Notes: generated by a model not told the origin, from the sequence alone. DNA of 64,000 nucleotides from an uncultured bacterium (GCA_964373045.1 CAYJSI010000003.1:9030-73029), one strand, 5' to 3'; positions 3,001 through 64,000 are shown, numbered from the stretch's first letter. Program-made: numbers and translations.

Positions 3001-6000
3001 TGCGAAGTGGCCGGTGGGAAGCTCGCAGACCATTACGTGGACAACCTACGGTAAAGTTCCTCTTGTTGATGTTTACTACTCGGCAAACGGAACCTTCTCG
3101 GACCAGGTGAAAATTAATTCGAGTGCTGTGGCGAATAATCAGGGAACGAATGCTACGGGAGCGACAACGAACCTTCCGTGGACACCTCCCGTGACGCTGG
3201 CGTTAACCTCGACTTATAAGATTCGAGTTGTGGATACCGGAAATAATACTACGCCTGATGCTCCGACCTTTGTCTTAGACAGCAGTTATTCTACCAATCG
3301 GGATTCCGGAGCATTTAAGATTCACGGCGTCATTGATAATGTGGTCCTGACTTCGCCCACCGGTACCACGAAACACAAGTCCTCCGATGCGGCCACCGTG
3401 ACCTGGGATACCACAGGCGACAACCTGAATAGTGTGGATATTGAATACCGGGATGTGACGGGCGCTTACCTTGCGGGCGCTTGGCAGCCGATTCAACTTG
3501 TCCATACCAATACGGGTGTCAATCGCGGAACCAAGAGCTGGACTATCCCGGAAACTTTCCGATCGAGTAATGTTGAAATCCGAGTCAAGCCTGCGGATGG
3601 GACGACAGATGGTTACGATTCAAGCGTTGCCTTGAAGGTCATGCCGAAGATCACTGTGACAACGCCCGTTGCCGCAGAACCTCTCAGTATTGGTACGGCT
3701 TATGATATTAAATGGGATATTCGCGGTGTGACTTCGTCCATCGGTATCCGTTATAAAACAGACGGCAATGCGACCACGAATAATTATCCGTCAGGCGACC
3801 CTTATGAAATTAAAACCGCCGGAGCGCCCTTGGTGCTGGACGGGACAAACTACACCAAAACCGGTACGAATGCGAAATTTCAATGGATCGATGCCGGAAC
3901 AGGCGGCGTGGCCGATACGCCTACGGCTCTTGCTCGTATGATGGTTTACGATCCTCTTGATGACCCTGCTTCGGGCGGTGACGTGTACGGTGTTTCCGCT
4001 AACAACGCCGGTAATTTTGAAATCCGCGGTTTCATCAATGCGAATAACTTCTCCTATTTAGGCGTAACTTACACCGACGATGCAGAATTTGAGGTGTATG
4101 GTGCCACTTTGAATCCAAATCCTGCTGTCATTAATTGGAATGGCGGAGGTACGATTCCGGATGCCATTATCGAATTTTCGACTACGTATGATGGAAGCGA
4201 CCCGACCTCCTTTAATGCAGGTAGAAAATGTCTTGATGGTACGACCGCCAGTCCCTGCCCGACGGTTCCGAACTGGAGCGGTTCAAGTGGCACCAAAACA
4301 TATGACTGGCACGTCCCGGATGTGATTTCCCGCAATACAAGCCCCTACTACATTCGTATCAAGGATCCCAATAACGCCAACGTTTTCGATATCTTCCCGC
4401 GTGGAGCAAGTAACGGTTTCAAAATTAAGTCCAAGCTTGATATAACTTCGCCCGATGGCGGGAACGAATTGCTCGTGGGAAATAAATCTTACAATATTAA
4501 CTGGACCAATACCGGAACAGTCCCGACGGTGGCGCTCGAGTATTCAGGGGACAATTGGCGGCATGAAGATACCAATAACAACAACATCATGGACCCGGGT
4601 GAAGATACCGATCTGGATGGATTCTTAGATCGAGTTCTTTGCGTGGCCGGTGGGACTTATCCAAACTGCAACGCCATTGCCAATGATGGTTCCTTTAATG
4701 GATTCGGCGCCGAAGGGTCCACGAACGGCCCTTGGAAGATTGCAGACGACGGCAAACTGATTCCTTGGAATTGCAACACGCTGCCTGATAACGATCCTAC
4801 TGATGCGAATCATCCTTGCAAAGTTCAAACCGCGAAGGTTCGCGTGCGTGATGGTGGAGATTTGCCGGTGATGAATGCCTCGGCAAGTAATTTTACGGCT
4901 CGTTATGTGGCTAAGAAATGGTATCTCAGAAACTCGGTGACCGGTGCCGATTTAGACAGTATTACGATGTATGAAAACACCATCCATAAAGTGCGGGCCA
5001 ATGGAAGTTTTGCAACACCCGGTATTGTTTCGCCCTATATTATTTGGAGTCCTGCCGGAACCAATTATACGATCGCCTTCTCCAAAGTTGGATTTACCGA
5101 TTATTATGATGCGGCTCAAACGACCACTTTGACGGATCAGGTGACCGGAGCCACGGTTGATCCCATTGAGCCTAATCACGCCATGTTAGATGAACGCCAA
5201 ACGGTTTACTTGAGTGATATCGTGGCCCATAACGACGTGATCAACACGTCTTATCAATATACGACTTCTTCCGGGTCTACCCCTGACAGCATTACCTTTA
5301 AGGTCTGGTACACTCGCGATGGTTTGAACGTGGTCACGACCACCCAAGCTCAACTTCTGGTTTACAATGGAGAGACGCTGCTTTCCAATATGAATTTAAC
5401 CTCCGCCACCCAAAATCCTGCGGGATCCGGCGTTTATACCTTTACCATTAGCAACACAGGTCTTCAAAAGAGTACGAACTACGATGCACGCAATAAGATT
5501 CGATTACCGACGGGAACCGATCTTCAGGGTTTCACGGTTGTGAATATCGGCCAGGCCTCTGATACGCAGACGACTAATGCCAATGTTGCGGTTATCACGC
5601 CCATTATTACCACCAATATTGATGGCAAAATTTCCGATGTCAAAAACGCAATCAGCGATGTCAAAAATGCGCTCGGTGTGACAGGAACCGATACCATTGT
5701 TAGTAAACTCAATAGTGTCCAGCAGGCCATTGAAAACAAAATCGGAACCGATTCTCAAGGTAGAACCTTGATGAAAAAGATGGATGACCAAACTGAAACT
5801 ATTAACACTGCAATCACCGACTTCACTAAAAAATCCGACAAAGCTGTCTTTAAGATGCAAGATGCTATTGCAAGATCTGCGGTTCGGCTGATTATTCCTC
5901 AGACTACCAAGGTTGGAACTAAAGAGACTATCCGTGTAGGGACCGAAGCAAGCGTGACCCCGACCATTGATATCATTTGCCCTAACGGAACGGCGATTGT

Positions 6001-7417
6001 GAGTGGAATGTCATTGACGGCAACCGCAACGCCCGGACTTTACGCGGCAGATATTACCTTTAATGCCAATACTTATAAATGCGCTGTGGCGAAGGCTGTG
6101 ACGATCATTGCAAACGTCACGATTCCCAGTAAGGATTCTGCCGAGCCTCCCGTGACGGGAACCGCGGTCGGCAGCATCTTTCTTGTGACATCCACGACCG
6201 ATGACGTCTTGGCGGCAGCTTCCTCGGGTATGGGCGCTGAAAGAGCGGCCAAGGATGCCAAAGAAGCGGTCAATAAAGTGGCCCAGGCCCTGGCCGGCAA
6301 AGGAAACGTCTTTGAATCCCTTGATCAATTGCAGGCAAGCATTGAACGCATCCCTTCTTCCCTTGAAAGCGGAGAAAAAGGTGTATCTCAAATGAAAAGC
6401 ACGCTTGATGAAGTGGCGGACCGTATCGCGGGGTTTGTGGGCCGCGAGGGTTATGATATGCGCACCATTCTCAAACAGGAAATTGGGGAGGGCATGAAAG
6501 GGGTGCGCAATAAAGTGGATCGCACCCTTACCGCCGCCCGCGTCATGAAAGATATTATGGAGCGCAAGGTCGGGCGAAGTGACGAGCCCATTATTCAGTC
6601 CTTCTACGAAATTGGAAGCGTGAAGCTCAGGGTGGTGGCCGTCAATCCTTCGCCCGAAAAACCGCAGACCATTCCCATCAAGATCTTCCTTCCGAAGGAG
6701 ATCATCCCGGACGATATTATCAATATGGGTGAACTGAAAGTGGGCTATGATTCTGAAAAGAGCCTCTATTTCGCCTACAGTGACGGCGTTGAGCTTGGAG
6801 CCCAGGAGACGCGCGTCTTTGAAGTTCACCTCGAAGACGTGTGGAAAGTCAAGAATGAAGAACTCGATAAGCTTCAAACTCAAAGCGACCGCGCCTTCAA
6901 GCATCTTGAAGTAACGGAATTCTCGCAGGACGCAAAAGCGGTTGTGGACTCGATCCATGCCCGGTTGAGTGACATCAAGAAAAAGCAGGAAGATGAGACC
7001 GTCTCGCGCGAAATTCATATCGGGATCTACCGCACTAACTTAAATGTCATGGAAGGGGTCAAAGAAGATATCCGGATGCTCGAAAAGATGCTGCAACGGA
7101 CTGGATCCCCCGCCTCTATCGAATTTCTGAAGGATACGGTTTTTGAAAAGAAAGACCATATCGACCGCATCACGGCCTGGAAACTCATCATGGCCATCCT
7201 CGGATTTCTGGGTCTCCTGGGCGCCGGGTTTTACGCCCGCTGGTTTTTGATGATCAAGGCCCATCGGGGGGCGCAGGCCAGTGAGCTGCTTGATCCTGCA
7301 GCCGATATCGATGAACACGTGGATGCGGTCAAACCCGGGTCAGGCGCTGCGGAAGAAATCGATATCTCGAAAATTCTCGGACAAGGTCAGGATAAAGATA
7401 AACAAAAGGCGGGGTAA
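2..7417 (+). CDS. Giant repetitive surface protein, C-terminal 2471 aa (5' end outside window). Contains more than 20 tandem ~95-aa beta-sandwich/Ig-like modules, then a helical/coiled-coil region and a single C-terminal transmembrane tail anchor.
   Basis: Continuous ORF to TAA at 7415-7417. Recurring module signature W-x-T...V-x-I-x-Y...W-x-[IP] (e.g. ITWTTYGKVPLVDVYYSANG, IQWTTTGSVTSVNIYY, VTWDTTGDNLNSVDIEYR). C-terminal hydrophobic helix WKLIMAILGFLGLLGAGFYARWFLMI followed by a short charged tail. Tandem 21-nt ISDVKNA duplication near 5630-5671. The overlapping small ORFs in the track are treated as spurious. Confidence 0.8.
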   Translation: MRVLDADDSDTASSSFNFGSNKQFELAGALDLTVLDSADAIYKVGTYASGRGARITWTKKGINNDQIFRLVNIQYTNTTTDPNFTSPTNAGTSVVINSTGTVCDGSGNCTYDWDIPTNAALSTTAVYKFRVIDAQNSDSYNISTNKFKLRGDFSSLNAANTPWAVASEPTFSWTTTGPISNVRMSFSRLGTFSSDEKFFKVDPSNKLVYDSSASSFATAQNITGNANGSKTYTVIVPDFITTDGAASFKIRVYDANDQGIAVDSSGFKVYGKFSLSEPGLSQNQKKKAGASTTVSWSINGNATVTKAKLEYTADGSSWSPIVQATITDANGITLINPSTTTSFNWTIPSVKSNNDFLAQVRIRSAASDNTPDSDSIGISANPFKISASISVSEPFNGQSPTWKVNDTGKVIKWATVPTDLNGASAGNGLVNVYYRKNAQDSWHQILTTAGESNDTQEGWSPIPNVVSNQTQVRVVDRADCANVDTDCDSSGDTAGTFDISGSIYFESAPNAPMGGEPWAVYKATPAQLQKTYSINWTSYGSDMSQVNIHAINAGLSQDVTLASGISSVQQVIDSNLGKYRSSWSWQIKDTGVAPVTPIGPDWRIQIVNSTSNTPAVSTLSEEFDILAGFYMSSHNSSTNTCEIGNSSKCQITWNTAGSVSDAILEYSTDGFAWFKVHGTPTLGSNPGSYNWSVPSDKTPSATIRYHVIDAVTGHTPAASDVTGDPNPPDGVSKLVASFPKDDIKWDASVPQYGGTALGGGQIMAVGQTAKVNYKYYGNISSIAVQYTLDQDNNPATFNDPVDMTISNPIPPSGGTGQFQYTFPDLLAGGADTTRMQFRILDGNAAVQDNLPANTENGVTGSFKLRGKILIDNPTLGTERWIAGDQASIQWTTTGSVTSVNIYYDVYNNDDSFVVTGTLAGGPFTSNANTQTTKTFTINTTNLTDLDSRPLYYKKIFVRVTDAQSEGGNPIHGNSSYTTLKAHKISGKLSLIEGSSSPQAGAKWPVGSSQTITWTTYGKVPLVDVYYSANGTFSDQVKINSSAVANNQGTNATGATTNLPWTPPVTLALTSTYKIRVVDTGNNTTPDAPTFVLDSSYSTNRDSGAFKIHGVIDNVVLTSPTGTTKHKSSDAATVTWDTTGDNLNSVDIEYRDVTGAYLAGAWQPIQLVHTNTGVNRGTKSWTIPETFRSSNVEIRVKPADGTTDGYDSSVALKVMPKITVTTPVAAEPLSIGTAYDIKWDIRGVTSSIGIRYKTDGNATTNNYPSGDPYEIKTAGAPLVLDGTNYTKTGTNAKFQWIDAGTGGVADTPTALARMMVYDPLDDPASGGDVYGVSANNAGNFEIRGFINANNFSYLGVTYTDDAEFEVYGATLNPNPAVINWNGGGTIPDAIIEFSTTYDGSDPTSFNAGRKCLDGTTASPCPTVPNWSGSSGTKTYDWHVPDVISRNTSPYYIRIKDPNNANVFDIFPRGASNGFKIKSKLDITSPDGGNELLVGNKSYNINWTNTGTVPTVALEYSGDNWRHEDTNNNNIMDPGEDTDLDGFLDRVLCVAGGTYPNCNAIANDGSFNGFGAEGSTNGPWKIADDGKLIPWNCNTLPDNDPTDANHPCKVQTAKVRVRDGGDLPVMNASASNFTARYVAKKWYLRNSVTGADLDSITMYENTIHKVRANGSFATPGIVSPYIIWSPAGTNYTIAFSKVGFTDYYDAAQTTTLTDQVTGATVDPIEPNHAMLDERQTVYLSDIVAHNDVINTSYQYTTSSGSTPDSITFKVWYTRDGLNVVTTTQAQLLVYNGETLLSNMNLTSATQNPAGSGVYTFTISNTGLQKSTNYDARNKIRLPTGTDLQGFTVVNIGQASDTQTTNANVAVITPIITTNIDGKISDVKNAISDVKNALGVTGTDTIVSKLNSVQQAIENKIGTDSQGRTLMKKMDDQTETINTAITDFTKKSDKAVFKMQDAIARSAVRLIIPQTTKVGTKETIRVGTEASVTPTIDIICPNGTAIVSGMSLTATATPGLYAADITFNANTYKCAVAKAVTIIANVTIPSKDSAEPPVTGTAVGSIFLVTSTTDDVLAAASSGMGAERAAKDAKEAVNKVAQALAGKGNVFESLDQLQASIERIPSSLESGEKGVSQMKSTLDEVADRIAGFVGREGYDMRTILKQEIGEGMKGVRNKVDRTLTAARVMKDIMERKVGRSDEPIIQSFYEIGSVKLRVVAVNPSPEKPQTIPIKIFLPKEIIPDDIINMGELKVGYDSEKSLYFAYSDGVELGAQETRVFEVHLEDVWKVKNEELDKLQTQSDRAFKHLEVTEFSQDAKAVVDSIHARLSDIKKKQEDETVSREIHIGIYRTNLNVMEGVKEDIRMLEKMLQRTGSPASIEFLKDTVFEKKDHIDRITAWKLIMAILGFLGLLGAGFYARWFLMIKAHRGAQASELLDPAADIDEHVDAVKPGSGAAEEIDISKILGQGQDKDKQKAG
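5630..5671 (+). repeat. Perfect-frame tandem duplication of a 21-nt unit (encodes ISDVKNA twice) inside the giant surface protein gene
   Basis: atttccgatgtcaaaaacgca / atcagcgatgtcaaaaatgcg are adjacent and in frame. Confidence 0.6.
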
Positions 7418-50513: not shown

Positions 50514-50865
50514 ATGGCTTTCAAATTTGAAAATTTAGAAGTTTGGAAAAAGGCTTTAGAGTTGAGCTTTCAAGTGCATCAACTGACTAGGACATTTCCA
50601 AAAGAAGAATTGTATGTATTGAGTTCACAAATCCAACGAGCAGCAGATTCTGCAGTATTGAATATCGCAGAAGGAAGTACAACGCAAAGCAATTCTGAGT
50701 TTAAGCAGTTTCTGAGGTATGCATTGCGTTCCACGGTTGAAGTGGTTGCCTGCCTTTATCTGGGGAAAAAGAAGAAACCTTATCGAACAAGTAGATTTTG
50801 ATCGTCTTTATGTTCAGGCAGAAGAAGTTGCCAAGATGATTCAAGGGTTGCGTAAATCTCTTTAG
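50514..50865 (+). pseudogene. Four-helix-bundle protein gene (TIGR02436 / 23S-rRNA-intervening-sequence-protein family) with a +1 frameshift in an A-run
   Basis: Frame 0 gives MAFKFENLEVWKKALELSFQVHQLTRTFPKEELYVLSSQIQRAADSAVLNIAEGSTTQSNSEFKQFLRYALRSTVEVVACLYLGKKKKPYRTSRF*. After ggggaaaaagaagaaa (~50763-50778) the +1 frame continues NLIEQVDFDRLYVQAEEVAKMIQGLRKSL*, which is the expected family C-terminus. Extra A in the homopolymer, or a sequencing error. Confidence 0.75.
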
Positions 50866-50869
50866 TTTG

Positions 50870-50898
50870 CTATGGACTATGGTCTATCGACTATGGAC
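50870..50898 (+). repeat. Right heptamer array (CTATGGA-CTATGGT-CTATCGA-CTATGGAC), inverted relative to the left array
   Basis: ctatggactatggtctatcgactatggac, immediately before the pyrD ATG (50904). Confidence 0.7.
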
Positions 50899-51848: not shown

Positions 51849-52609
51849 TGACAAAGGTGCCAGAATCTCATTCTCAGAACCCGTCACCTGTCACCCGTGA
51901 CCCGAAACCTCAGTCTAAACTAATCGTTGCACTCGATACGGCAAGTCTTGAAGTTGCGAAAGAACTCATCGAGAAATTGAAGGGCGTCGTTTCTTTTTAT
52001 AAAATTGGTTTTGAACTTTTTACCGCACACGGCTGGAAGGCCGTGGAACTTGTGAAGCGCTCGGGCGCCCGCGTTTTTCTCGACCTCAAATTCCATGATA
52101 TTCCGAATACCGTGGCCAAAACGGCGTCTGTGATTGCCGCTCACGAGATTGACATGTTCAATGTGCATGCCCTCGGAGGCTTTGAGATGATGGAAGCGGC
52201 ACGCAAAGCGGTGGACGATGCCGTGAAGGGGAAAAAGAAAAAGCCCATTCTTTTAGCGGTAACGGTTCTTACAAGTCACAGCGAGGAAGATCTTGAAGCG
52301 ATGGGCATTGAAGGCAATCTCAAGGACGAAGTGCTGACCCTCGCCTGGCTTGCTAAAAAAGCCGGAATGGACGGCGTCGTCAGCTCTCCCCAGGAGATCA
52401 CGCTCCTACGCAATGAATTCCCGAAAGACTTCACGATTGTGACGCCTGGGATTCGCCCTGCTTACACCGCAAAAGGGGATCAAAAACGCACCTTCGGACC
52501 CAAAGAGGCCTTTGTCGCCGGGGCCGATTTTATTGTCGTGGGCCGCCCCATTACAGCCGCTCCGGACCCCCGCAGCGAGGCCATAGCGATCCAAAGCACA
52601 CTGAAGTAG
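51848..52609 (+). CDS. pyrF: Orotidine-5'-phosphate decarboxylase
   Basis: LIVALD...FYKIGFELF...VFLDLKFHDIPNTV motifs. Overlaps the pyrD stop. Confidence 0.9.
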   Translation: MTKVPESHSQNPSPVTRDPKPQSKLIVALDTASLEVAKELIEKLKGVVSFYKIGFELFTAHGWKAVELVKRSGARVFLDLKFHDIPNTVAKTASVIAAHEIDMFNVHALGGFEMMEAARKAVDDAVKGKKKKPILLAVTVLTSHSEEDLEAMGIEGNLKDEVLTLAWLAKKAGMDGVVSSPQEITLLRNEFPKDFTIVTPGIRPAYTAKGDQKRTFGPKEAFVAGADFIVVGRPITAAPDPRSEAIAIQSTLK

Positions 52610-52907: not shown

Positions 52908-55900
52908 ATGAAAAAACAAATAAAATCCCTCACGGCCTCCCTCACCGTCCTCTGTTTTCTCGTCACTCAAATCGCCTCGGGCGCACCCTTCCTCTTCGCC
53001 TCACCCTATCGTGCCGAAATGGCTGCACAAAGGGAATTGATTCCTTTTCCCACCTTTGGGCTCAGCGTCCCTTCCGATCTGGGCGTGATCGATTATCTTC
53101 ATCGGGGTTCCGGCCCGGTTCTTCTGCATATTCAAACCGCCCACGGCCACTACGACGCTCAGAAAAAAATCGAAGCCCTACTTTACTATCTCAAGAAGGC
53201 CTACGGCATTCAGGATCTTTTCATCGAAGGGACGGCGGTCAAAATCCAGCCGGAACTTCTGCGTTTTTTCCCTGATGACAAGGAGCTCAATCGTGAAGTT
53301 CTTGACGGGCTCACGCGCCGGGCCTTTGTGAAGGGCTCTGAACTTTTTGCCGTGGACGAACCCGAAGCAAATCTCTATGGCATTGAGGAGCTCAAGTCCT
53401 ATCGCGTCAACAAATCCTCCTTTCGAGAGGTGCTCCGCGAGCAGGAGAAAACTGAGCGCTGGGTCAAAGAAATGGAAATGCAGATGGAGCGGCTCACCGG
53501 GCCTTATTTGAATAAGGAACTTCGAGCTTTTCTTAAGCGGATTGAGGACCACGAGGCCAATCGAATCGGCATGATGGACTGGCTCTCGATTCTAAAAGAA
53601 GAGGCCGAGAAACGCCTTGAGATCCGTCTGGCCGACCCCGCCTTTCAGCTTGACTGGCCTATGTTGGTGCGGGTCTTTAAACTCCGCGAACTCGATTCAA
53701 AATTGGATCCTCAGATTTACCCGAAAGAACGGGCCGAATTCCTTCGCTCGATCCGCCGTTTTCTCCCGGGCGCCCTCGCCCTTGAAATTCAAAAGGAGCT
53801 CATGCTCCCCCCCTCCGCTCAATCCCTTTCAGACCCTGGGACGAGTGAGCTCTTCCTTAAAATGGTGGAGCACCTTCCGCCGGGATTCCGTTATGACGCC
53901 TTTCCTCAGGTGAAATATTTCATCGGTCATTTAATTTTACAAAGTGAGCTCAAGGCCGAACGGCTTGTGAAGGAAGTGGAACAGGTTCAAGAGAAGATCC
54001 AAGCCAAGCTCGCCAAAACCCGTGAAGAAAAAGAACTCCTAGTACTTCTTCATGAGAAAAAACTTCTCACACGGCTTCTTCACCTTGAATTGACGCCGGG
54101 GGATTATGAAAAAATACGGGTCCCAGGTGCCGGGTCTCAGGTGCCAGGCTCTGTTCTTTCTGACACCCGACACCCGACACCCGTTACCCGTCACCTTCGT
54201 CCATCTTCCGTCGTTTCCCGTTTCCTTGCCGTGAACCGCGATCAGCGCGTTCGCAACGTCTCCTTCCGCCACTTAGAAGAAATCGACCGGCTTTACGAAA
54301 AGGCGCTTGAGTTTTACCGAGGCGCCAAAGAGCGTGATCAGTTCATGATAGACAATATCCTTCGGCTTATTCGGGATGAAAAGATTTCAAAAGCGGTTGT
54401 GATCACCGGAGGTTTCCACACCAAACCCTTCCAGGATTTTTTCACGAAAGAAAATTACCACTACGCCTCCATTTCTCCCAAGATTACCGAGATCGAACCC
54501 CGCGATGCCTATCTCCACGCCATTCTCCAGGATTCACCACTCACCAAGGCCTCCACACTTGAGGTGGACTCCATCGCAGTTCCAAAGGAGCAGCTTGTTC
54601 TTCACGGCACAAACTTTGAAATAGTGAATGGCATCGTGATGGGGGAACTCGAAACAGCGGCACGCAAAAAAGGAAAATGGAATGATTCAACCATTCAGGC
54701 TTTTGATCAAAGTGCTTATGCCAGGATAAACGGCGTACGGCTCAACCAAAATCTTTCTTTAGTTCCTCAAGCCCTTTCCCGGGCTGAGGTACGGAATATT
54801 GAGACAGAAGCAATTGAAGATGTTCAAGATTTTTATCAACTTCATTTTTTGGCTATGTTTTACGGCCATGAGTTTATACACCCTCAAGGGGATTCTCCGA
54901 GTCCGGCGAGTCTTGAAGATCAGGTTGACGCGTATAACTTTTGGATTACGCATTTTGAGCAGCGTAATTTATTCAACGGCACTCTTGCCGAAACCACTGC
55001 GGGGAGCAGAATAAGCGAAGAGCAATTTAATGCCCTCAAGGAATTTCTCCTGCGGACTTATCCTCGTCAAGGTAGTTTTCCTTCGTTGATTCACCGGTAT
55101 CTTATCGGTTTGGGTCAAAATCGTCTGGAGGAGGTGCTTGCGTTCATTGGCCAGGCAACGGTTCTGGAACAGCCCGAGGGTCGTCCCGGATTTTGGCGTG
55201 TCAATGGCGACTTAAAAAGTCAGAATAAAGCCATTGTTATTTGGGATGAAGGTACATCCATTCATTTCCGTGTGTTTTCGAGAGGGTCAGAACGCGAGAG
55301 TGATCAGGAATTTTTCTTTATTAATCCCGCTCATTTAGATGCTATTCGCAATGCGATAGAAGCAGCTTCTAGAGGAACCGTCCGAATTCCCCGCTCTGAG
55401 GTGAGGAAATTGGGCGAGGAGCAGGAGACGAGGCGGCCGATCAACCTGAGGGATGGCGGCGGTTTATATAGTACTGATAAATGGCTGCAATCCCGATCAT
55501 TACAGAGATTATGGTCATTGCTCCTAAGACTTCAGCCATGGTTTAACGCCCTCCTTTGGGGGGATAAAGAACCCACGCGACAACAAATCCGAGCGGTGGT
55601 TAATGCGAGCGCCGGCGGGAAAGATAATCCAGTAAGAGAATCCCGCCCATTATGGCCATCACAAAAAGAGCTGCACCATACAGCATCCAAATGGGGTGCA
55701 TCTCATCCTCCTTTTTTTGAATTCTTACGGTTAGCATTCAAACGAATAAATAAAAATAATCAGCCCACCCAGCATACAGCAACCGCCGAAAAAAATACTA
55801 GCATTAAATCCATCTCCTCTCAACAAGGGAATTACCAGCCCCGCCAAAATGACGGTATAAGTACTGACGCAAATTTTGACCAAATTTTCTCGGCGCTTGG

Positions 55901-58900
55901 CCGTCAATCTCAGCATCTCTTTTCCCTCATTAAAACCTTAAGTAAGCGTATTCTGAATTTTGTTATAAGTCAATTATTATTTTTAGTTAAATCAAATTTT
56001 AATTTACTGTCTTCGGGAGTGTGGGGGATGAGGACCCCCTTCCTTACCCCCGGCCTCTTACTCCCGGCCCCTGTTTCTTCTCGCTTGGATGCGCGGCGAA
56101 GTGAAGTGCGAACGGAAATTTTGGGGGTTCGGGCTTTAAGTTCGTTGGACCGTAGTGATATTGAGGCAGGACGTAAGGGCGGCGAGATCTTTTTTCTCAG
56201 CCAGCTTCCTCGTCAACAGAGGCCGACGGATCAACAACTCATCAATCAAATCATCTGGGGGTGGCCCGCCTTCCGGGAAAACATTCTTCCTGAAATTCAT
56301 GAGAGGTTTTTAGAGCTCAATCGGTTATTGTGGTCTAACAGAAGTGTCCTTGCAAAGGATCCCGAGTTCCGAGCGTTTCTTGGATATTTTGCGGAGCGCC
56401 TGGCAAGAAGGAATTTTCTCCAAACCCCCCTTGAAGAAATATCCGGTCGAACCGAAAAGCAAGTTCTCAGAGCTTATCATCAATTCGTAACCATCAAAGA
56501 TCGCATCCTTTCGCGCTCAGAAATGCGAACCTCGAGGCAGCTTCAAGGAGAAATTGATTATTTTTTCAGAATGAAGGAAGAAGCCCGGTCTCGTGCGGAT
56601 TTGATGGAACGCATGCTGAGTGAAATTAAAATTATCCTCGAGGGAGGACGCGGGTTAAAACAGGCAGGGCGAACTCAAGAAGCGCTGGATGTCTTAGAAA
56701 TTCTTCGCAGCTACGCCGATAGACTTACGAAGTTTGCCGAAAAAATTGGGCCTGAGAAAAAATACTTTCCTCGTGGAGTCTCTCGGGAAGAGTTGCAAAA
56801 ATGGCGCGCTGAAGAGGAAGCGAGGGACGGGAATATTTTACCCGAAGCAAGCGCCGCCGATTTAAAAGCCCGATCCGCAGATCTCAAAAAACGAATCGAT
56901 GCCTTTCTTCCTCAATTCATAGAGGCCTACCGCCCGGATAATGAGCGGAAACTCGACCGTTTGAATCATCAGGTTCTGGCCCTTCATAAAGCCCGAATCA
57001 AAGTCCAGCTCTTGCAGGCCCGTCATTACCTTTTGAAATCCTCTCCCAACGAAGGAGTTCTCTCTAACCTTTTGAATTCGCTCAGGTCAAGCTACATGCG
57101 GCTGCAACAGGAATATTGGTGGCGCTGGAAGCGCTCAGTCCGTAGCGCTGAGATTCAACAAGTTGCCGTTGTCGGTCACGAAGGCCGTACTGTTCGAACC
57201 TATGATTATTCCCAATTTAAGCTGAGGGTGAAGACTGCAAAAGATGCAGACGAGGATTCCGAAAATGTTTTAATCCAAAATCGGTGGAAATTAATCGTGC
57301 AACCCGATGGTTCAAAAGTGCATCAACTCGTTCCGACCGAAATTCATTTTTCAAGTTTAGATACAACGCTTCGGGCTTCCTTGAATACGCTCATCAGCCA
57401 GGAAGAAGATTACGGACAGGTCTTGTTTAGAGTGACGGCACTTGAATACGTTGTTGAGATCCTCAAAGAAGCCGTCAAGAACGGGACAGAACGTATTTCG
57501 AATTTCCAACAGGAAATTATCAATGCGAATTTAAGAGATGTTTTAGAAGGAAAAGGCGGACTTCGTGCCGGGATCACACCGCAAAAGGAAAATGCAACGG
57601 CCAAAGTCGAGGAAGCGATTGTGCATATGAAGGCCGGAAAATTTTCCAAGGCTAGTGAAGTGCTTGAAGACGCGATCAAAAGACTTCGGAGCCGATTAAC
57701 CGATATCGAGGGGAAAAATAAGGGGATACGCCATATCACGGATTATGTTGCCCATGAACTTCGAAAAGAAGAAACCGGCAGGGCGATTCGGGAAGTTAAA
57801 ACATTAGTGGCCCAGAATGATTTTCCATCAGCCTCAGAACTTTTAACGCAGCTCTACCAAGCCAATTATCGACCGATCGCCTCAAGGCACGGACAATATG
57901 AGTCTCTTAAGCGCGAAGTTTTAGCGCTCAAAATCAATATTACTCAATTGCAACGCTTTCACGGAAAACCATCGGAAGTAGACTTAAGAAAATCCATTTT
58001 CGAAAACATTCGCCGCATTTCAAATATGACGGGTGTTCGTTCCGAGCTGCGGCGGCAGACCAAGCACAGAGCAAAGAGCATGCCTGCCCGCCGAAGCGAA
58101 GCTGCAGGCGGGGAGCGTAGAGTTAACCTTATGCCCTCTGCCAGCCCTCTGCCCGTTTCCCGCTCCAAGTCGCGTGAACGCTCAGAGGTAAGAGTCACTT
58201 CGCCTGATTTTGAGGCCAAAGCGAAGCGTCATGCTGCTGAGTATGCAGTCATGACTACGCACAGATCCTCGGACGATGAAAGTTTTCTCCCCGATTGGCT
58301 GAAGAAACTAGGGGATGTTTTTTTGGTTCGAGATCGAATGCCGCGAAGAGAAGATAAGCAATTAGCAGCGGAGAGGATTAACAGAGTACCGCGTCTATCA
58401 TCCTCCGGTAAGTTCCTCGATCTCCGTAAACCCGCATCGGATTATCTGGATGAGATAGCTTCCCGTCTTTTATTCGGGGATAACACGCCTCCTCAAACCC
58501 GCGAAGGATGGCAGGGCTTGATTTTGGACGTTGCCGCTCCAACGCTCGTCCGTCAAACGGCTTTTGCGGCGTTCGAAAAAGCAAATCCCGATTTATTTCC
58601 TCCGTCCGTGCGCATTGAAATATCGGTCCGGGATATCAATAAAGTTCCAGCCGACGGCATGATTGTGGAAACCGATTCTCATCTTCTCGGAACCCCGGGA
58701 ATGTTCCTTCGCTCGCTCGAGCTTTCTCCGGAAGGCGATGTTCCGAACATTTCCGACTGGCGCGATCAATCTAAGAATCATGAACCGGGATCAGTTGTGA
58801 TTTCTCCGTCTTTAGCTCAAGCGAAGGAGAAAACCATTGCCGGATGGAAATATGCGCTTGGCGCCATTGTGCGTTCCACGGATGAACAGCCTCTTGATGA

Positions 58901-61900
58901 AAAGATTTATAAAGCCGCGCTCAGAAAAGCACTGGAACAAGCCGACCGTTTAGGATTGGAAACCGTCACGCTGAATCATCCCGCAGCTTTGACTTGGGCC
59001 ACTACCGTGATCCGGCAATTTTCAAAGCAAAAGCGTCTTCATTTAAAATCTGTAAACATTGTTTTTTTTACGGAAAAAGATTACAACACCTCCCTTCAAT
59101 TCACTTCCCGTTCCGAGGCGAGAGAAAGGCAGTCGATAGTCGATAGTCGACGGTCCATAGCAAACCCAGTAGTTAATCCATGGGCTATAGACTCTCTTCT
59201 ATTGACTAACCCCCGCTCCGAGCTGCGACGGCCTGAGAAAAACGAAGGCCGCGCAGCCGTCCCGCGTTCAGAAGCGCGGGGCGAGGTGCGGAAGAAGAAT
59301 CAAATCAATTTTGATTTGGAACGTGAGAAGCGGAAAATACAAGAAACAAAAGAACAGTTCGGCTCGACTTTACCTTGGATGGATAAGCAGAATTTTATTC
59401 TGGATTTCTTGGTCCGGGATGCGCTTCCTATTTTTGGAAATGTTTTTCAAGGTGGCCGCCGCGCGGCACTAAGGAGAATTAACGAGGGAAGCAAAAATAA
59501 AGCAGACACGTCTCCCGTTACGAACTACGACCCTTTAATTGAAGGAAAATTTCGGGATGCGGTTGATGGGGCCTTCCCTGGTCACGGTGTCTTGGGGGAA
59601 GAACTTGCTGATCGGAACAGGCTTCGTCCTCAAACGTTTACGTCAGATCCGATTGATGGAACAGTGGACTGGAAAATACTAGGTTCGCACTTTGGAAACC
59701 TGAGCGGATATTACGACAGCATTCATACCAACGGTGAGCCGCAAGTTGCAGTCGGGTATTGGCCTCTTCTGGATATGGATGGTTCGGGCTCCATGCTTTT
59801 TGTCGGCCGCGAAGACCAAGATGGAATTCTTGTTAATGGAAAGAGAGTTGAGCGTGCCGCGATCGAAGCCATCAATCAAAGCCGCACGGTCATTATTGGA
59901 GGCAGAAGCAAGCCCAAGACGCGGCAGCTTTTAAAAGAATATTTTGAAAAACGAGGCATGATGGTGAAATTTACAAGCGCCGGCGGAGGAGAGTCCGCTG
60001 AGATGATGCTTCGTGGCACGGCACGGTTTTATATCCATCTCAATCCCGCGGCAGTCGATGCGCCTATCGGCACTTTTTTTGCTAAAAAACTTGGATTGAA
60101 AGCCACAGATCGCGAAGGCAATCCCGTAAAGGTTCCTTTTAACTATCTTCAAAATGGACTCTATTTTCACCCTTATATCATCGGATCAAACGAATCGCAC
60201 CAGGAAGCGCTAGAAGCCTTTGCCGCCATCGGAGAACCGGAAGAAGACGTCCAATGGACCCCCCTTGAAAGAAAAGCGGCTCCGGCTGATTTGATTGATC
60301 ATTTAACCCAGGAGTCGGCTCAAAGAGCGCGCCGGCTGCTTCCTCAGGATCCGGGAGTTTCCAAGAAAAAAGAAATTAAAAAGCGAGAGCTCAAACAACT
60401 TTTAGAAAGAACGGTAGCTCTAGTCGCCGAGACCGCCAGCTTGGACATGGAACGGCTGCTGAACAGTCTCATTGAAGGAGTCACGTTCAAAAAAGTTATT
60501 CCCCAGGTGGTTAAACGGGCGGTCAGCGCGTACTCCAAGAAAAAAGCGTTAGGGCAGTCGGTGATTGTTGCTCAGGCCGGAACTCCGGGAGCAGGGAAAT
60601 CCGTTGGTGGAAAATATTTAGCCGAAGCCATTGCTCGGGCCATTCAAAAGAAGTTTCCTAAAGAAAAAGTCATCGTTCCTGTTTTGAAAGAAGATAACAT
60701 TGCTTTGATCCAAAGAAATCTTCGCGGCAAAGGCTTGGCCGGAAAATTTAAATGGGCTGAACGTGACCTTGCTCTTGCGGATCTTGTCAGCGGCCAATCG
60801 GTACTTAAAGGCATCTTTGATGATACGAGCGGCGGAAACGTCCTTCTTTCTCTTGACCCGGAAGGCAATGTGGTCATTCATAACGGCAATCGGACCGTGA
60901 CCATTCGGCATAAAGCCGGCAGCGAGGTTTTTTCTTACGACGAAGTTTTGAGTCGTCCAAACGAACCTCCATTGAATCTAACAGAGGAGCAAAAACGCAA
61001 TCATATCAACATTCAGGATAGCGGAATTTTTGAGTGCGGTTCCACAAAAGTACGCATTCGAATCGAAGGAAAAGGTACAAGTGCACGGCTTATTGTTGGT
61101 TTTCAAAGTTTAGAAATCGTATCGCTCAATGAATACGGTGAACTGGAAATGCTGACACAGCTAACCGATCATGAGATTGAACCGGTTACCGGAGGCAGGG
61201 CAACCGTAAAGGCGCGCTCTCCTTTAGGAGATCTCCCTTCCTATTTAAATGAAGCGTCGGTTTTTCAGATCGAAACCGTTCAGAATCCTCAAAAAGTCGA
61301 GGACCTCCGTAAAGCTAAAGAAGCCAGAGAATTTGTCCCTTCCGGTACACCCCTTGTCTTTGACGGCCAGTTTGCATTTTTAAGGCTTAATGAAAAAGGT
61401 GGTTTTTCTCCGGATGTTCATCTCTATGACGTTACGCTGAATTATCGGGCGAATCGAATGACGCGCTGGGCAAGAGATCTTAAGCGAAGTCGTGAGCGCG
61501 GAAGAACAACGGCAGAAGCCAATGAAAACGCTCAACGGTTTTACGAAAGAGCTTTTACGGAAGAAGAACGCTCGAATCGGGCCAACGCGGAATTCGGGAT
61601 TCAGGTCAATACGACAGACCTTGCCGAATCTCTTGAACGTTTGATCCTCTATCATTTTGAACAGCAGTCCGCCTACAGTGAAATCTGGGCTCAGATGGGC
61701 ATTGATCCCAAAACCATTGATGAAGAGCAGCGCCGGGAAAATGATCTTCCCGAAACTTTGAAACTGTTGGCTCTCTGGAAAAATTTGAAATTCAAGCGAA
61801 CATTAAACGGAACCATCGACGAGTATGAAATCGGAGATTTTATCATCCGCGTAGAGAGGAGCGCTCCGTCACTTTCTAAAATCCATCGGGGACAAAATCA

Positions 61901-64000
61901 AAAACTTAAAGAGCGCGGTAATGAAGTGATTGCAAGTAACTCACTGATCGATGTGCGGCAAGCGGGAAAAATTTTGGGAAAACCCATTCGTTTTACGGGC
62001 ATCAAGGGTGGTCAGCTGGGATGGATTTCCGTATGGAACAGAGGCGAGCTTTTGGGAGACCGGCTCAACAAATTAGCAGCTCAGGGAGATGCTGAAAGTC
62101 TGAATGAGGGAATAAAATGGATTGATCATTTTGTTGATCAGGAAGCAGCGCTTCACAAGCGCGGAATTGTGGATGAAGATCCGGATATGATGGAACAGCG
62201 CCGGCTTTTACCGATTCGCGGAGAAGTGAGCGTGGCTGTGGCAAGTCCCGAATCCAACCTTCGGATGGGCGGGGAAGCCCTTCGGCTTTATCGCGAGAAG
62301 TATCTTCCTGCCGCGGATCAAACTAATATCTATCTGCGTCAGGAAAAGTTGGATAAAATTCCCGCAGTATTTCGTGACTATTATAAGAAACGTGTTTCGA
62401 AGAAGTTGCTTCCGCATTCTGTCTCGGATGAAACTTCTCGAAATGAAGCATGGGAAGCTTTTTTCAAGGATGTTTTTGAAACAGCGCTTCCAAATTCCCT
62501 TCGAACTGTACAAAAAGATCTGCCCGCCGTCTTACAAACCGTTTCAAAACGAAAAGATGTCATGCGGGAACACAAAATTCCGCTTCGTAATTGGGGAGTA
62601 GAACACCCCGCCATTTACCACAAGCGGATTGAACATATGCGCGGGTATGTCACTCGCTATTTCATTCGAAGCGCCAAACGACAATATTTCCCCGCCATTC
62701 AAAGCAAATCGGCGACTCCCCAGCTTTTGTGGGTTGCCTTGATGCGCCAAACTTATCCGGATAAATATGCGGATTTTTATCAAATGATCCGGGTTTTAGC
62801 AGATGAAATGTTAGACAAACCCTTTCTCTTAGACGCGACCCGCTACCCAGCTTACAAACAGAATGCGGCGGTGCGCAGCCTTATTAGCGAAAAACTTGCC
62901 GAACCTTACCGTCAGGCGGGAATTGAACCTCCGCCGATTGACGCTGCCGCATGGGCATCCTTTGATTATTTTCTGAATCAAACACGGTCTCTTGCCGCCC
63001 GCTCAGAAGTGCGGAATGCGACATGGATTCCAAGTCCCGATGGCGAAGGACCTGGCCATGTGGTATCAGGCTCAGTTCCTGAGTCGGGGGGAGTGCGCAC
63101 TCCCGGCGAAGATGCCGTTCCTGCTCCTTCGCACGAAACGCAATTATGGCCGGAAGAAAGAAAATCTAAATCCGGACCCGGACACCCTGTGTCTGTTGCA
63201 CCTCTCATTCCAAGTCCTAAAGGACCCTTGGATACCGGTGGCGGCATTGTCTCCAAAGAAGATCTCTCCTCTTCCCGGGCTGAGGTAAGAGACGAGGCGA
63301 GAGAAAGGCAGTCGATAGTCGATAGTCGACGGTCCATGGAAAACCCAGTAGTTAATCCATGGGCTATAGACTCTCTTCTATTGACTAACCCCCGCTCCGA
63401 GCTGCGACGGAATGCCCGCTCGGCAGGGATGACACGCAGAAATTTCCTGATAGGGAGTGGGGCTACGCTTGCACTCACGGGGTTTGCGGCCCCGCAGTCT
63501 GTAGTGAAGTTCGCAGCGGCCAGTTCGCCGCCCAACCAGAAAAAATCTGCAGAGACGGATCAAGAAATCGAAAAGAAATTCATCGAGTGGCGCAAGGCCG
63601 CAGAAAAAGCCTTTCTCGAAAGATTTCCCTTGGATGAAAAAATCGAGAAAAAACAAATGCTGACTGATGACGAAAAGAAACAGTATCTGGAGCTCAGAAA
63701 GAAAACCCGTGAACTCAGTCTCCTGATGATGTACGCCTCCTACCGTCTCCAGGAAAGAGAAGATAAACGGCTTGAAAATAGAATCCTGGAGGATCTGACG
63801 AATTCTCTCGATTTAAAATCAAAGAACAAGCAAAAGCGGTATTACACGGCTGCCACTCTCGAGCAACTGGGGTATTTTTATCACAGTATAAAATTGCGGG
63901 ATTTTCTCATCCGTGTCGCTCAGGATACCAAGCTGGATGCCCTCTATCGTGATAGAGCTGTCGATGGGCTCGCTCTCATGATCGCGACTTATTGGAACAC
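52908..64000 (+). CDS. Giant modular secreted protein, 5' portion (more than 3,697 codons; continues beyond the window). Segments: Sec signal; TraB/GumN/Tiki-like module; low-complexity linkers; macro-like domain; inositol-monophosphatase-fold domain; P-loop kinase-like domain; internal Tat-type signal peptide.
   Basis: Every codon in the frame (positions congruent to 0 mod 3) from 52851 to 64000 was checked by hand and none is TAA, TAG or TGA. The nearest upstream stop is TAA 52848-52850. First ATG is 52908. N-terminus MKKQIKSLTASLTVLCFLVTQIASGA. Motifs seen: LLHIQTAHG / VITGGFHTKPF (TraB-like), VRDINKVPADGMIVETDSHLLGTPG..LGLETVTLNHPAALTWA (macro-like), GVLGEELADRN + DPIDGT (IMPase fold), VIVAQAGTPGAGKS (Walker A). 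Not in the supplied track, presumably because it has no in-window stop. Confidence 0.8.
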   Translation, partial: MKKQIKSLTASLTVLCFLVTQIASGAPFLFASPYRAEMAAQRELIPFPTFGLSVPSDLGVIDYLHRGSGPVLLHIQTAHGHYDAQKKIEALLYYLKKAYGIQDLFIEGTAVKIQPELLRFFPDDKELNREVLDGLTRRAFVKGSELFAVDEPEANLYGIEELKSYRVNKSSFREVLREQEKTERWVKEMEMQMERLTGPYLNKELRAFLKRIEDHEANRIGMMDWLSILKEEAEKRLEIRLADPAFQLDWPMLVRVFKLRELDSKLDPQIYPKERAEFLRSIRRFLPGALALEIQKELMLPPSAQSLSDPGTSELFLKMVEHLPPGFRYDAFPQVKYFIGHLILQSELKAERLVKEVEQVQEKIQAKLAKTREEKELLVLLHEKKLLTRLLHLELTPGDYEKIRVPGAGSQVPGSVLSDTRHPTPVTRHLRPSSVVSRFLAVNRDQRVRNVSFRHLEEIDRLYEKALEFYRGAKERDQFMIDNILRLIRDEKISKAVVITGGFHTKPFQDFFTKENYHYASISPKITEIEPRDAYLHAILQDSPLTKASTLEVDSIAVPKEQLVLHGTNFEIVNGIVMGELETAARKKGKWNDSTIQAFDQSAYARINGVRLNQNLSLVPQALSRAEVRNIETEAIEDVQDFYQLHFLAMFYGHEFIHPQGDSPSPASLEDQVDAYNFWITHFEQRNLFNGTLAETTAGSRISEEQFNALKEFLLRTYPRQGSFPSLIHRYLIGLGQNRLEEVLAFIGQATVLEQPEGRPGFWRVNGDLKSQNKAIVIWDEGTSIHFRVFSRGSERESDQEFFFINPAHLDAIRNAIEAASRGTVRIPRSEVRKLGEEQETRRPINLRDGGGLYSTDKWLQSRSLQRLWSLLLRLQPWFNALLWGDKEPTRQQIRAVVNASAGGKDNPVRESRPLWPSQKELHHTASKWGASHPPFFEFLRLAFKRINKNNQPTQHTATAEKNTSIKSISSQQGNYQPRQNDGISTDANFDQIFSALGRQSQHLFSLIKTLSKRILNFVISQLLFLVKSNFNLLSSGVWGMRTPFLTPGLLLPAPVSSRLDARRSEVRTEILGVRALSSLDRSDIEAGRKGGEIFFLSQLPRQQRPTDQQLINQIIWGWPAFRENILPEIHERFLELNRLLWSNRSVLAKDPEFRAFLGYFAERLARRNFLQTPLEEISGRTEKQVLRAYHQFVTIKDRILSRSEMRTSRQLQGEIDYFFRMKEEARSRADLMERMLSEIKIILEGGRGLKQAGRTQEALDVLEILRSYADRLTKFAEKIGPEKKYFPRGVSREELQKWRAEEEARDGNILPEASAADLKARSADLKKRIDAFLPQFIEAYRPDNERKLDRLNHQVLALHKARIKVQLLQARHYLLKSSPNEGVLSNLLNSLRSSYMRLQQEYWWRWKRSVRSAEIQQVAVVGHEGRTVRTYDYSQFKLRVKTAKDADEDSENVLIQNRWKLIVQPDGSKVHQLVPTEIHFSSLDTTLRASLNTLISQEEDYGQVLFRVTALEYVVEILKEAVKNGTERISNFQQEIINANLRDVLEGKGGLRAGITPQKENATAKVEEAIVHMKAGKFSKASEVLEDAIKRLRSRLTDIEGKNKGIRHITDYVAHELRKEETGRAIREVKTLVAQNDFPSASELLTQLYQANYRPIASRHGQYESLKREVLALKINITQLQRFHGKPSEVDLRKSIFENIRRISNMTGVRSELRRQTKHRAKSMPARRSEAAGGERRVNLMPSASPLPVSRSKSRERSEVRVTSPDFEAKAKRHAAEYAVMTTHRSSDDESFLPDWLKKLGDVFLVRDRMPRREDKQLAAERINRVPRLSSSGKFLDLRKPASDYLDEIASRLLFGDNTPPQTREGWQGLILDVAAPTLVRQTAFAAFEKANPDLFPPSVRIEISVRDINKVPADGMIVETDSHLLGTPGMFLRSLELSPEGDVPNISDWRDQSKNHEPGSVVISPSLAQAKEKTIAGWKYALGAIVRSTDEQPLDEKIYKAALRKALEQADRLGLETVTLNHPAALTWATTVIRQFSKQKRLHLKSVNIVFFTEKDYNTSLQFTSRSEARERQSIVDSRRSIANPVVNPWAIDSLLLTNPRSELRRPEKNEGRAAVPRSEARGEVRKKNQINFDLEREKRKIQETKEQFGSTLPWMDKQNFILDFLVRDALPIFGNVFQGGRRAALRRINEGSKNKADTSPVTNYDPLIEGKFRDAVDGAFPGHGVLGEELADRNRLRPQTFTSDPIDGTVDWKILGSHFGNLSGYYDSIHTNGEPQVAVGYWPLLDMDGSGSMLFVGREDQDGILVNGKRVERAAIEAINQSRTVIIGGRSKPKTRQLLKEYFEKRGMMVKFTSAGGGESAEMMLRGTARFYIHLNPAAVDAPIGTFFAKKLGLKATDREGNPVKVPFNYLQNGLYFHPYIIGSNESHQEALEAFAAIGEPEEDVQWTPLERKAAPADLIDHLTQESAQRARRLLPQDPGVSKKKEIKKRELKQLLERTVALVAETASLDMERLLNSLIEGVTFKKVIPQVVKRAVSAYSKKKALGQSVIVAQAGTPGAGKSVGGKYLAEAIARAIQKKFPKEKVIVPVLKEDNIALIQRNLRGKGLAGKFKWAERDLALADLVSGQSVLKGIFDDTSGGNVLLSLDPEGNVVIHNGNRTVTIRHKAGSEVFSYDEVLSRPNEPPLNLTEEQKRNHINIQDSGIFECGSTKVRIRIEGKGTSARLIVGFQSLEIVSLNEYGELEMLTQLTDHEIEPVTGGRATVKARSPLGDLPSYLNEASVFQIETVQNPQKVEDLRKAKEAREFVPSGTPLVFDGQFAFLRLNEKGGFSPDVHLYDVTLNYRANRMTRWARDLKRSRERGRTTAEANENAQRFYERAFTEEERSNRANAEFGIQVNTTDLAESLERLILYHFEQQSAYSEIWAQMGIDPKTIDEEQRRENDLPETLKLLALWKNLKFKRTLNGTIDEYEIGDFIIRVERSAPSLSKIHRGQNQKLKERGNEVIASNSLIDVRQAGKILGKPIRFTGIKGGQLGWISVWNRGELLGDRLNKLAAQGDAESLNEGIKWIDHFVDQEAALHKRGIVDEDPDMMEQRRLLPIRGEVSVAVASPESNLRMGGEALRLYREKYLPAADQTNIYLRQEKLDKIPAVFRDYYKKRVSKKLLPHSVSDETSRNEAWEAFFKDVFETALPNSLRTVQKDLPAVLQTVSKRKDVMREHKIPLRNWGVEHPAIYHKRIEHMRGYVTRYFIRSAKRQYFPAIQSKSATPQLLWVALMRQTYPDKYADFYQMIRVLADEMLDKPFLLDATRYPAYKQNAAVRSLISEKLAEPYRQAGIEPPPIDAAAWASFDYFLNQTRSLAARSEVRNATWIPSPDGEGPGHVVSGSVPESGGVRTPGEDAVPAPSHETQLWPEERKSKSGPGHPVSVAPLIPSPKGPLDTGGGIVSKEDLSSSRAEVRDEARERQSIVDSRRSMENPVVNPWAIDSLLLTNPRSELRRNARSAGMTRRNFLIGSGATLALTGFAAPQSVVKFAAASSPPNQKKSAETDQEIEKKFIEWRKAAEKAFLERFPLDEKIEKKQMLTDDEKKQYLELRKKTRELSLLMMYASYRLQEREDKRLENRILEDLTNSLDLKSKNKQKRYYTAATLEQLGYFYHSIKLRDFLIRVAQDTKLDALYRDRAVDGLALMIATYWN
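59115..59231 (+). repeat. 117-nt in-frame repeat element, copy 1 (encodes EARERQSIVDSRRSIANPVVNPWAIDSLLLTNPRSELRR)
   Basis: 115/117 identical to copy 2. Contains a direct heptamer array TCGATAG-TCGATAG-TCGACGG-TCCATAG and inverted CTATAGA/CTATTGA units. Flanking sequence is unrelated between copies. Confidence 0.85.
63294..63410 (+). repeat. 117-nt in-frame repeat element, copy 2
   Basis: Same as copy 1 apart from two substitutions (ccatagc to ccatgga). Ends 20 nt before the internal Tat-like signal (ATG 63430). Confidence 0.85.

Follow-up and report, generated by a model that had tools for sequence, protein, structure and literature searches.

A stop-free and cysteine-free filler module with a putative antisense gene cassette in a giant reading frame of an uncultured bacterium

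This report concerns a module (positions 55392-56111) of a giant open reading frame (ORF) in a DNA stretch of 64,000 nucleotides (nt) from an uncultured bacterium (GCA_964373045.1, CAYJSI010000003.1:9030-73029; the window). With somewhat better than even confidence, we interpret this segment as a translated filler module that harbours an antisense cassette of three genes and that is probably removed by processing at R-S-E-V-R, the pentapeptide motif on either side of it. The relevant features are the following, with positions counted from the first letter of the window.

52908..64000 (right edge = window end), plus strand: giant ORF, at least 3,697 codons.
52908 on, plus strand: layout of the giant ORF; first a signal peptide at the N-terminus, then a conserved IQ(D/T)AH...GGFH module, then modules of protein size with R-[SA]-E-[VLMAI]-R between them.
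55392..55406, plus strand: left junction motif R-S-E-V-R, encoded by CGC TCT GAG GTG AGG.
55407..56096, plus strand: filler module flanked by two R-S-E-V-R; 690 nt, 46% guanine plus cytosine (GC), about 235 residues.
55539..55441, minus strand: ORF C, 32 amino acids (aa), MAEVLGAMTIISVMIGIAAIYQYYINRRHPSG; one transmembrane (TM) helix and a basic tail; AAGGAGG at 55556..55550.
55701..55600, minus strand: ORF B, 33 aa (MHPIW...); one TM helix and a basic tail; AAGGAGG at 55713..55707.
55916..55731, minus strand: ORF A, 61 aa; two hydrophobic segments, four Cys; GAGGG at 55928..55924, 7 nt before the ATG.
55917..56015, minus strand: AT-rich leader upstream of ORF A; TTGACT (55973..55968), a 17-nt spacer and TACGCT (55950..55945); also TTAAAA-18-AATAAT (56002..55973).
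56015-56019 (GGGAG) and 56028-56030 (ATG), plus strand: GGGAG-N8-ATG, in frame with the giant ORF and 23 codons ahead of the right motif; a possible internal start.
56097..56111, plus strand: right junction motif R-S-E-V-R, encoded by CGA AGT GAA GTG CGA, codons that differ from those of the left copy.

The segment 55392-56111 is exactly one inter-motif module of the giant frame. A first-pass annotation, made from the sequence alone, had singled out its AT-rich part (55590-56040) as a stretch that stays open in frame 0. This observation is correct: the GC content drops to 0.36-0.44 across 55600-56000, and the sense frame contains no stop codon between the flanking motifs, while the other five frames contain 8-19. 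Mononucleotide shuffles of the module carry 11.9 stops on average and never reached zero in 5,000 trials. The sense frame is also free of cysteine codons (0 found versus 6.3 expected, P(0) = 0.001; other frames: 1-10). The sequence that is encoded in this way looks odd and hydrophilic, and its codon-usage score is negative. Homologues of the sense translation were found neither in a word-indexed protein search nor when 1.84 billion representative proteins were searched exhaustively without a profile. This second search returned 38 relatives of the giant protein, which match only the module downstream of 56424 (query residues 658-1200). A single further copy of the locus was found (L001), with 99.94% identity and without any single-nucleotide polymorphism in the module. 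The earlier description of this segment as a disordered linker is apt in that the sense peptide is filler-like, but it is not a conserved linker. Taken as a pattern of sequence, these data indicate that the sense frame of the module is under selection to stay open and free of cysteine, and not for its sequence.

The same rule applies to the entire gene. The giant frame contains two Cys in 3,697 aa as compared to 0.99% Cys in 25 neighbouring genes, which corresponds to an approximately 20-fold depletion, and the only strongly depleted codons are the three stops along with TGT and TGC. Relatives contain 0-8 Cys per 3,500-7,800 aa (P0001-P0012), including two proteins with none at all (P0004, 7,839 aa; P0012, 5,925 aa). 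Since the cysteine rule is kept even across the filler, it argues that the whole frame is translated, and we infer from the sequence that ribosomes pass through the filler as well. One possible cause of cysteine avoidance is export in an unfolded state, as with cysteine-poor secreted proteins.

The motif that brackets the module recurs throughout the giant frame. There are 12 copies of R-[SA]-E-[VLMAI]-R in this frame, none in either of the remaining plus-strand frames of the 64 kb, and just two in the minus-strand frames, both outside of an ORF. In 23 giant proteins of the family, we counted 184 copies versus 2.6 expected, an enrichment of 70-fold. The residues that flank the motif are not conserved, and the median module between two motifs spans 294 aa, about the size of one protein. 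Many junctions carry tandem motifs that are 30-46 residues apart, as in the window at 58038/58092/58179 and 59109/59214/59265. The codons of the motif vary synonymously, including AGR for Arg and AGY for Ser, so that conservation acts mainly at the level of amino acids. Among 161 motifs from 13 loci, the last Arg is AGR in 22%, AGY Ser is present but rare, the first Arg is CGY in 83% as compared to 41% in the background, and position 4 is mostly NNG (GTG, CTG, ATG, GCG, TTG). These codon preferences hint at an additional constraint on RNA or on translation kinetics. Most likely, R-S-E-V-R is a polyprotein cleavage site. Directly after R-S-E-L-R, the frame at 63393-63480 reads NARSAGMTRRNFLIGSGATLALTGFAAP, a signal peptide of the twin-arginine (TAT) type. 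Such a signal needs a free N-terminus, which could arise at the motif by processing or by re-initiation. Across the family, Met shows no enrichment close to the motifs.

The relatives place the window gene in a family of giants. The stretch 56424-58052 matches giants of 3,500-7,800 aa (E = 4e-92 to 1e-36), an alignment of this core module (A1) contains 36 invariant columns, and scans of genome contigs identified loci with 34-37% identity in metagenome-assembled genomes named Candidatus Omnitrophota. Most relatives are giants that share the N-terminal signal, the IQDAH...GGFH module and the same pentapeptide at the junctions. The N-terminal layout in this family consists of a signal or anchor followed by an IQDAH...EG...RD...GGFH...SP.IT module, in which Q76, A78, H79, E107, G108, R476, G501-H504 and P524 are invariant (alignment A2). 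An AlphaFold2 model of this module scored a predicted local distance difference test (pLDDT) value of 75. The other modules in relatives are ordinary enzymes or membrane proteins (MarC, HAD, metallo-beta-lactamase, SNF2 helicase, methyltransferases), and the modules of the window's own giant ORF give IMPase, macro-domain and kinase-like matches in Pfam or NCBIfam.

We now turn to the minus strand of the module. The first-pass annotation had called two small ORFs with Shine-Dalgarno (SD) signals at 55701..55600 and 55916..55731. Both are real and as noted; a third ORF at 55539..55441 had been missed. The ATG of ORF B is preceded at a distance of 4 nt by AAGGAGGA (SD match 6/6, hydropathy 2.23), that of ORF C at a distance of 10 nt by AAGGAGG (SD match 6/6, hydropathy 2.45). 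The arrangement AAGGAGG-N3-10-ATG occurs at only two sites when both strands of the 64 kb are counted together (128 kb), and these two sites belong to ORFs B and C, within 160 nt of each other. Of 20 ATG ORFs with a strong SD site in the window, nine are on the minus strand, and of these only ORFs B and C reach TM-grade hydropathy. ORF A, the codons of which are in exact register with the giant frame, encodes four Cys, in contrast to the sense frame opposite to it. A scan for codon usage in which stops were penalised flagged nothing and was replaced by a version that ignores stop codons. In this version, no long stretch of the 11-kb gene other than 55428-55908 has an antisense frame with a higher score than the sense frame, and the top-scoring antisense frame is that of ORFs B and C. 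The AT-rich leader upstream of ORF A is a putative promoter of the cassette, with hexamers that do not differ statistically from chance. We infer from these signals that ORFs A, B and C are expressed as peptides.

If the antisense peptides are real, both strands of the module are constrained, and we estimated how likely the sense frame would be open in this case. An exact calculation, in which the antisense peptides were kept constant and their synonymous codons followed the usage of the genome, gives probabilities of an open sense frame of 0.22 for ORF A, 0.010 for ORF B and 3e-4 for ORF C. The spacers contribute a factor of approximately 0.016, which results in an overall probability of about 1e-8. 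All three Ile codons in the antisense ORFs that precede a codon starting with A are ATA, a codon that accounts for 3.7% of the Ile codons in the genome. The remaining six Ile codons are ATT or ATC. This codon choice indicates that sense stops are avoided by way of the synonymous rare codons ATA and GTA and not by substitutions that change the antisense peptides.

Antisense genes in comparable modules of relatives are in part recognisable by known domains. The giant frame of locus L002 (6,063 open codons, 18 motifs) contains three junk-looking modules with genes on the minus strand. One module carries antisense HicA (38.7 bits, gathering score 27) and HicB/UPF0150 (28.3 bits, gathering score 27.3). 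A second one carries a HicA-like match of 25 bits, just under the gathering score of 27, together with a member of phrog_12841 (E = 2e-12), and the third one carries an antisense pair of DUF5678 and aspartyl-protease matches, both below threshold. Furthermore, an antisense gene for a coiled-coil protein of 76-94 aa occurs in motif-bounded, stop-free and Cys-free modules of five independent giants (L009, L014, L017/L018, L019, L022/L023), always in the same register. The gene was located at these positions:

L009 4607-4870, minus strand, and L014 17878-18132, minus strand: coiled-coil gene, embedded antisense.
L016 331-588, L017 5060-5344, L019 4157-4390, L020 2551-2799, L022 1405-1635: coiled-coil gene.

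Outside of the giants, the coiled-coil gene lies just past the giant's stop codon in L016 and between neighbouring minus-strand genes in L020/L021. The family also includes 13 homologues that were called as stand-alone genes, one of which is named as a Candidatus Omnitrophica protein, and this family may be functionally linked to the giants. Over this gene, L009 and L014 can be aligned without gaps at 54% DNA identity. The antisense frame is better conserved than the giant frame (BLOSUM sum 150 vs 81), and the antisense differences at codon positions 1/2/3 (38/22/43) follow the usual pattern of coding sequence. In each of the six filler modules examined, the giant frame lacks both stops and Cys (P(0 Cys) = 0.001-0.02 per module). 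The statistics on SD site, ATG and TM segments, the codon usage scored with stops ignored, and the Pfam-recognisable antisense genes in relatives make embedded antisense genes the best-supported of the options that the first-pass annotation had offered for this region.

These observations can be combined to a mechanism as follows. The module would be filler between two processing sites of a polyprotein, with R-S-E-V-R marking these sites. A cassette A-B-C for small membrane peptides, each gene with its own SD site, would run against the giant gene. A cassette that lands between tandem motifs would end up tightly bracketed, and the modules of L002, L009 and L014 have the same look. Ribosomes would read through the cassette and produce a filler peptide of about 235 residues. 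As a consequence of this read-through, stops and cysteines would be purged from the sense frame, and where the antisense peptides matter, this purging would be done by synonymous changes. Because the filler is bracketed by the processing motif, it could be discarded without harm to neighbouring modules. By analogy with HicAB in L002, one might guess at a toxin-like or addiction role for the peptides from ORFs A-C. A broader version of this idea, which we put forward tentatively and consider rather unlikely as a whole, is that the Omnitrophota giants are true polyproteins: dozens of ordinary proteins would be made as a single Cys-free chain, which might be exported in an unfolded state and would be cleaved at R-S-E-[VLM]-R, and filler modules would offer protected sites to antisense cassettes of a selfish or regulatory kind (HicAB, small membrane toxins, the coiled-coil gene), with mRNAs that are masked by the giant transcript. 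Both strands of such a module would then be selected at the same time, one for the protein that it encodes and the other merely for an open, Cys-free frame.

Several results weigh against the interpretation of the module as a host of antisense genes. ORFs A, B and C have no homologue in Pfam, NCBIfam, PHROGs or PADLOC, and none of the three gave a match by tblastn against all fetched loci or among plasmids and phages. ORF A had no match in a search of 5.8 billion proteins, and exact look-ups of ORF A and of a long form of ORF B found nothing. No diverged relative of the module turned up in single-protein scans of contigs from genomes and metagenomes. A consensus scan for promoters found three sites versus 1.5 +/- 1.3 expected, which is not above chance; this applies to the A/T block that the first-pass annotation had called promoter-like. 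Long antisense ORFs are common artefacts in such genes, with 241 of at least 60 aa in eight loci. In the equivalent frame of the coiled-coil gene outside of giants, one lineage has stops and Cys and one lineage has none, so that this control can be read either way; the register of this gene relative to the giant frame is intrinsically permissive. As to a protease encoded in cis, the N-terminal module of the family gives only hints below threshold: Foldseek lists the erythromycin esterase EreC (6xcs_A), BcR135 (3b55/2rad) and ChaN (2g5g) at E = 1.2-4.1, and the Pfam matches to DUF5694, Erythro_esteras and Cofac_haem_bdg (which Pfam labels as Tiki superfamily) are all below threshold. Likewise, a PDB profile search with this module found nothing. 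In addition, a scan for terminators remained at chance level, and ORFs A, B and C contain no HicA_toxin or HicB/UPF0150 domain, which sets them apart from the HicAB family.

A less likely alternative is that the module is filler only. It would then be a translated spacer that evolves fast and may have been left behind by inserted foreign DNA, and its minus-strand ORFs would be non-functional, having arisen by chance or persisting as decaying relics. The lack of homologues for ORFs A, B and C and the abundance of antisense ORFs in these giant genes would be expected in this case, and the strand opposite to a hydrophilic filler tends to encode hydrophobic residues anyway. However, this alternative is a poor explanation for two perfect AAGGAGG-ATG signals within 160 nt that have no counterpart in the 64 kb, for TM-grade hydropathy being limited to B and C among the minus-strand ORFs with a strong SD site, and for antisense codon usage that exceeds sense codon usage at this place alone. 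Stop avoidance via the synonymous rare codons ATA and GTA also speaks for antisense peptides that matter, as do the intact Pfam-recognisable genes in the equivalent modules of L002.

The second alternative, which we consider improbable, is a functional cistron boundary. According to this model, the AT-rich block acts as a promoter within the gene and translation restarts at GGGAG-N8-ATG, such that the downstream modules are made independently and read-through is secondary. The first-pass annotation had suspected a hidden gene boundary here and had pointed to an in-frame ATG after GGGAG. This ATG is present, at 56028-56030 instead of at 56029, with the SD-like GGGAG located 8 nt before it, and the low GC content of the AT-rich block would suit a promoter. 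A weak analogy is provided by L017/L018, where a gene caller places the start of the downstream ORF right behind an antisense cassette, at an ATG 20 codons ahead of a motif. On the other hand, the L017 frame is actually open across the cassette, and its stops are located upstream, next to a scaffold gap. The promoter scan at chance level, the missing enrichment of Met near motifs and a module without any stop codon (chance of about 1e-8) and purged of Cys as well are at odds with this model. A boundary does exist at this place in the sense of a module boundary (R-S-E-V-R at 55392 and 56097), but a conventional gene boundary is contradicted by a frame that lacks a stop and is kept open and Cys-free. 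The ATG at 56028 may function as an additional start site, and this would be compatible with a translated filler that harbours antisense genes.

The protein-sized modules (median 294 aa), the ordinary enzymes among them (IMPase, macro domain, kinase) and the TAT-type signal that opens a module right after the motif at 63393 could also belong to a series of individual genes, between which an ordinary antisense operon is located and for which the open frame is an accident or a gene-calling artefact, yet this is very unlikely in view of at least 3,697 stop-free codons here and up to 7,839 in relatives, a junction motif that is 70-fold enriched and varies synonymously, an approximately 20-fold Cys depletion in this frame only, and neighbouring genes that end in normal stops. 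Insertion of an intein or of an invertible segment found no support: Pfam and NCBIfam show no Hint/intein domain in 52908-63998, and a search for an invertible segment or a target-site duplication around the module found only short repeats of at most 14 nt, as expected by chance. The DNA of the module had no match among plasmids or phages.

The giant gene directly follows a pyrimidine-biosynthesis operon. Its plus-strand reading frame has no stop from 52851 up to the end of the window (3,716 codons), and the ATG at 52908, followed by the signal peptide, is the likely start. The operon is closed by pyrF, which ends just upstream at 52609, and the genes that neighbour the giant ORF use stops normally. 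The pyrimidine gene run around 50514-50801 consists of a PRTase-domain gene, pyrB, pyrC, carA, carB, pyrK, pyrD and pyrF (names inferred from Pfam). Between pyrK and pyrD, the run is interrupted by a gene (50514-50801) whose product is a 23S rRNA intervening-sequence protein (PF05635). A second very long open frame (2-7417, at least 2,472 codons) runs past the left end of the window. It contains no R-S-E-V-R and 14 Cys, a normal content, and so belongs to another class of large genes of this genome.

The giant ORF also contains a 118-nt direct repeat, with copies at 59114-59231 and 63293-63410 that are 98% identical and both in frame. The repeat includes GTCGATAGTCGATAGTCGAC and ends in an R-S-E-L-R motif; a string related to GTCGATAGTCGATAGTCGAC is found at 50887-50898, adjoining the gene for the intervening-sequence protein. 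Folding of the repeat is no better than that of shuffled sequences, and the repeat may be a small mobile element that is tolerated in frame. A long hairpin at 54111-54196 within the N-terminal module was seen only as weak matches to microRNA (miRNA) models on both strands. The sense translation at this place is junk-like (VPGAGSQVPGSVLSDTRHPTPVTRHLRPSSV), and similar repetitive in-frame stretches of junk-like sequence are present in relatives P0003 and P0008. No credible Rfam match to a structured RNA was found, the only matches being those to hairpin-type miRNA models, all outside of the 55392-56111 module. A second junk-looking module (63000-63290) extends from R-S-E-V-R at 63000 to R-A-E-V-R at 63276 and is rich in Pro, Gly and Ser. 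An antisense frame scores slightly higher there than the sense frame, and a convincing antisense gene was not found in it.

Giant genes of Omnitrophota have been described before. A class of very long proteins from this phylum was termed 'multi-enzyme metabolic cluster' (bioRxiv 10.64898/2026.06.07.730766, a preprint with 5,761 proteins of at least 10 thousand aa), and giants of the Archaeovorin and Dockerin type were reported by West-Roberts et al. 2023 (bioRxiv 10.1101/2023.11.21.568195). Post-translational cleavage has been proposed for Omnitrophota giants, with the describing authors calling the cleavage points unknown. In neither preprint (bioRxiv 10.64898/2026.06.07.730766 and 10.1101/2023.11.21.568195) is there any mention of polyproteins, of genes on the antisense strand, of a motif at the junctions or of an avoidance of cysteine. 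The motif strings were absent from the relevant papers in our literature search, and a published name for giant Omnitrophota ORFs punctuated by R-S-E-V-R was not found either. The giants described here resemble the published ones in that they come from the same phylum and consist of a single huge ORF tiled with many unrelated enzyme domains, but they measure 3.5-8 thousand aa instead of 10-147 thousand aa. Unlike giants of the Archaeovorin and Dockerin type, the visible part of the window gene (52908-63998) shows no dockerin, C39 peptidase or SecA-like domain in Pfam or NCBIfam, while its downstream part extends past the window end. The kind of gene is therefore known (giant multi-enzyme ORFs of Omnitrophota); the literature that we searched contained no description of the motif, the Cys rule or the antisense cassettes.

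More distant systems share single aspects of this architecture. Viral polyproteins and MARTX toxins combine many protein-sized units in one ORF, with short conserved junctions and heterogeneous, exchangeable modules. The giants are similar with regard to protein-sized units and a short junction sequence, a putative cleavage site, but their modules look like housekeeping enzymes. Viral polyproteins and MARTX toxins are not known to have antisense genes in filler segments. With respect to type II toxin-antitoxin (TA) systems, antisense cassettes of L002 are HicA/HicB by Pfam, whereas the window ORFs match no TA or defence family. Type I toxins generally are small peptides with one TM helix and a basic tail, and a strong SD site is atypical for them. 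ORFs B and C (approximately 32 aa, one TM helix, basic tail) resemble these toxins by shape only, and the giant mRNA would be antisense to the mRNAs of B and C. They differ by their strong SD sites, the missing match to a family and an antitoxin that was not identified here.

Foreign DNA within a coding frame is known from Rickettsia palindromic elements and inteins, where the product is tolerated or removed at the protein level. The coding frame in the window is likewise unbroken by the insert, and the 118-nt repeat also occurs twice in frame. Unlike those elements, the insert consists of a gene cassette on the opposite strand and has no Hint domain, and unlike inteins, its removal would depend on the junction motifs of the host gene. 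Finally, nested antisense genes occur in some bacteria, where the 'mother' frame encodes a functional, conserved segment. ORFs A-C are comparable as small ORFs fully inside of and opposite to a longer ORF, but the mother frame here looks like filler, with selection acting only against stops and Cys.

How giant Omnitrophota genes are expressed and processed is a standing question, and this locus addresses it in three ways. It offers a precise candidate for a punctuation or cleavage motif with 70-fold enrichment and protein-sized spacing, it provides a rule for the composition of the giant frame (stops absent and Cys nearly so, even in filler), and it shows a recurring design in which genes are placed on the opposite strand inside of the giant frame. 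The motif and the Cys rule can be used straight away for segmenting and annotating thousands of giant ORFs. If our interpretation is true, the module would illustrate with unusual clarity how both DNA strands can be under constraint simultaneously, and the giants would represent a bacterial counterpart of viral polyproteins.

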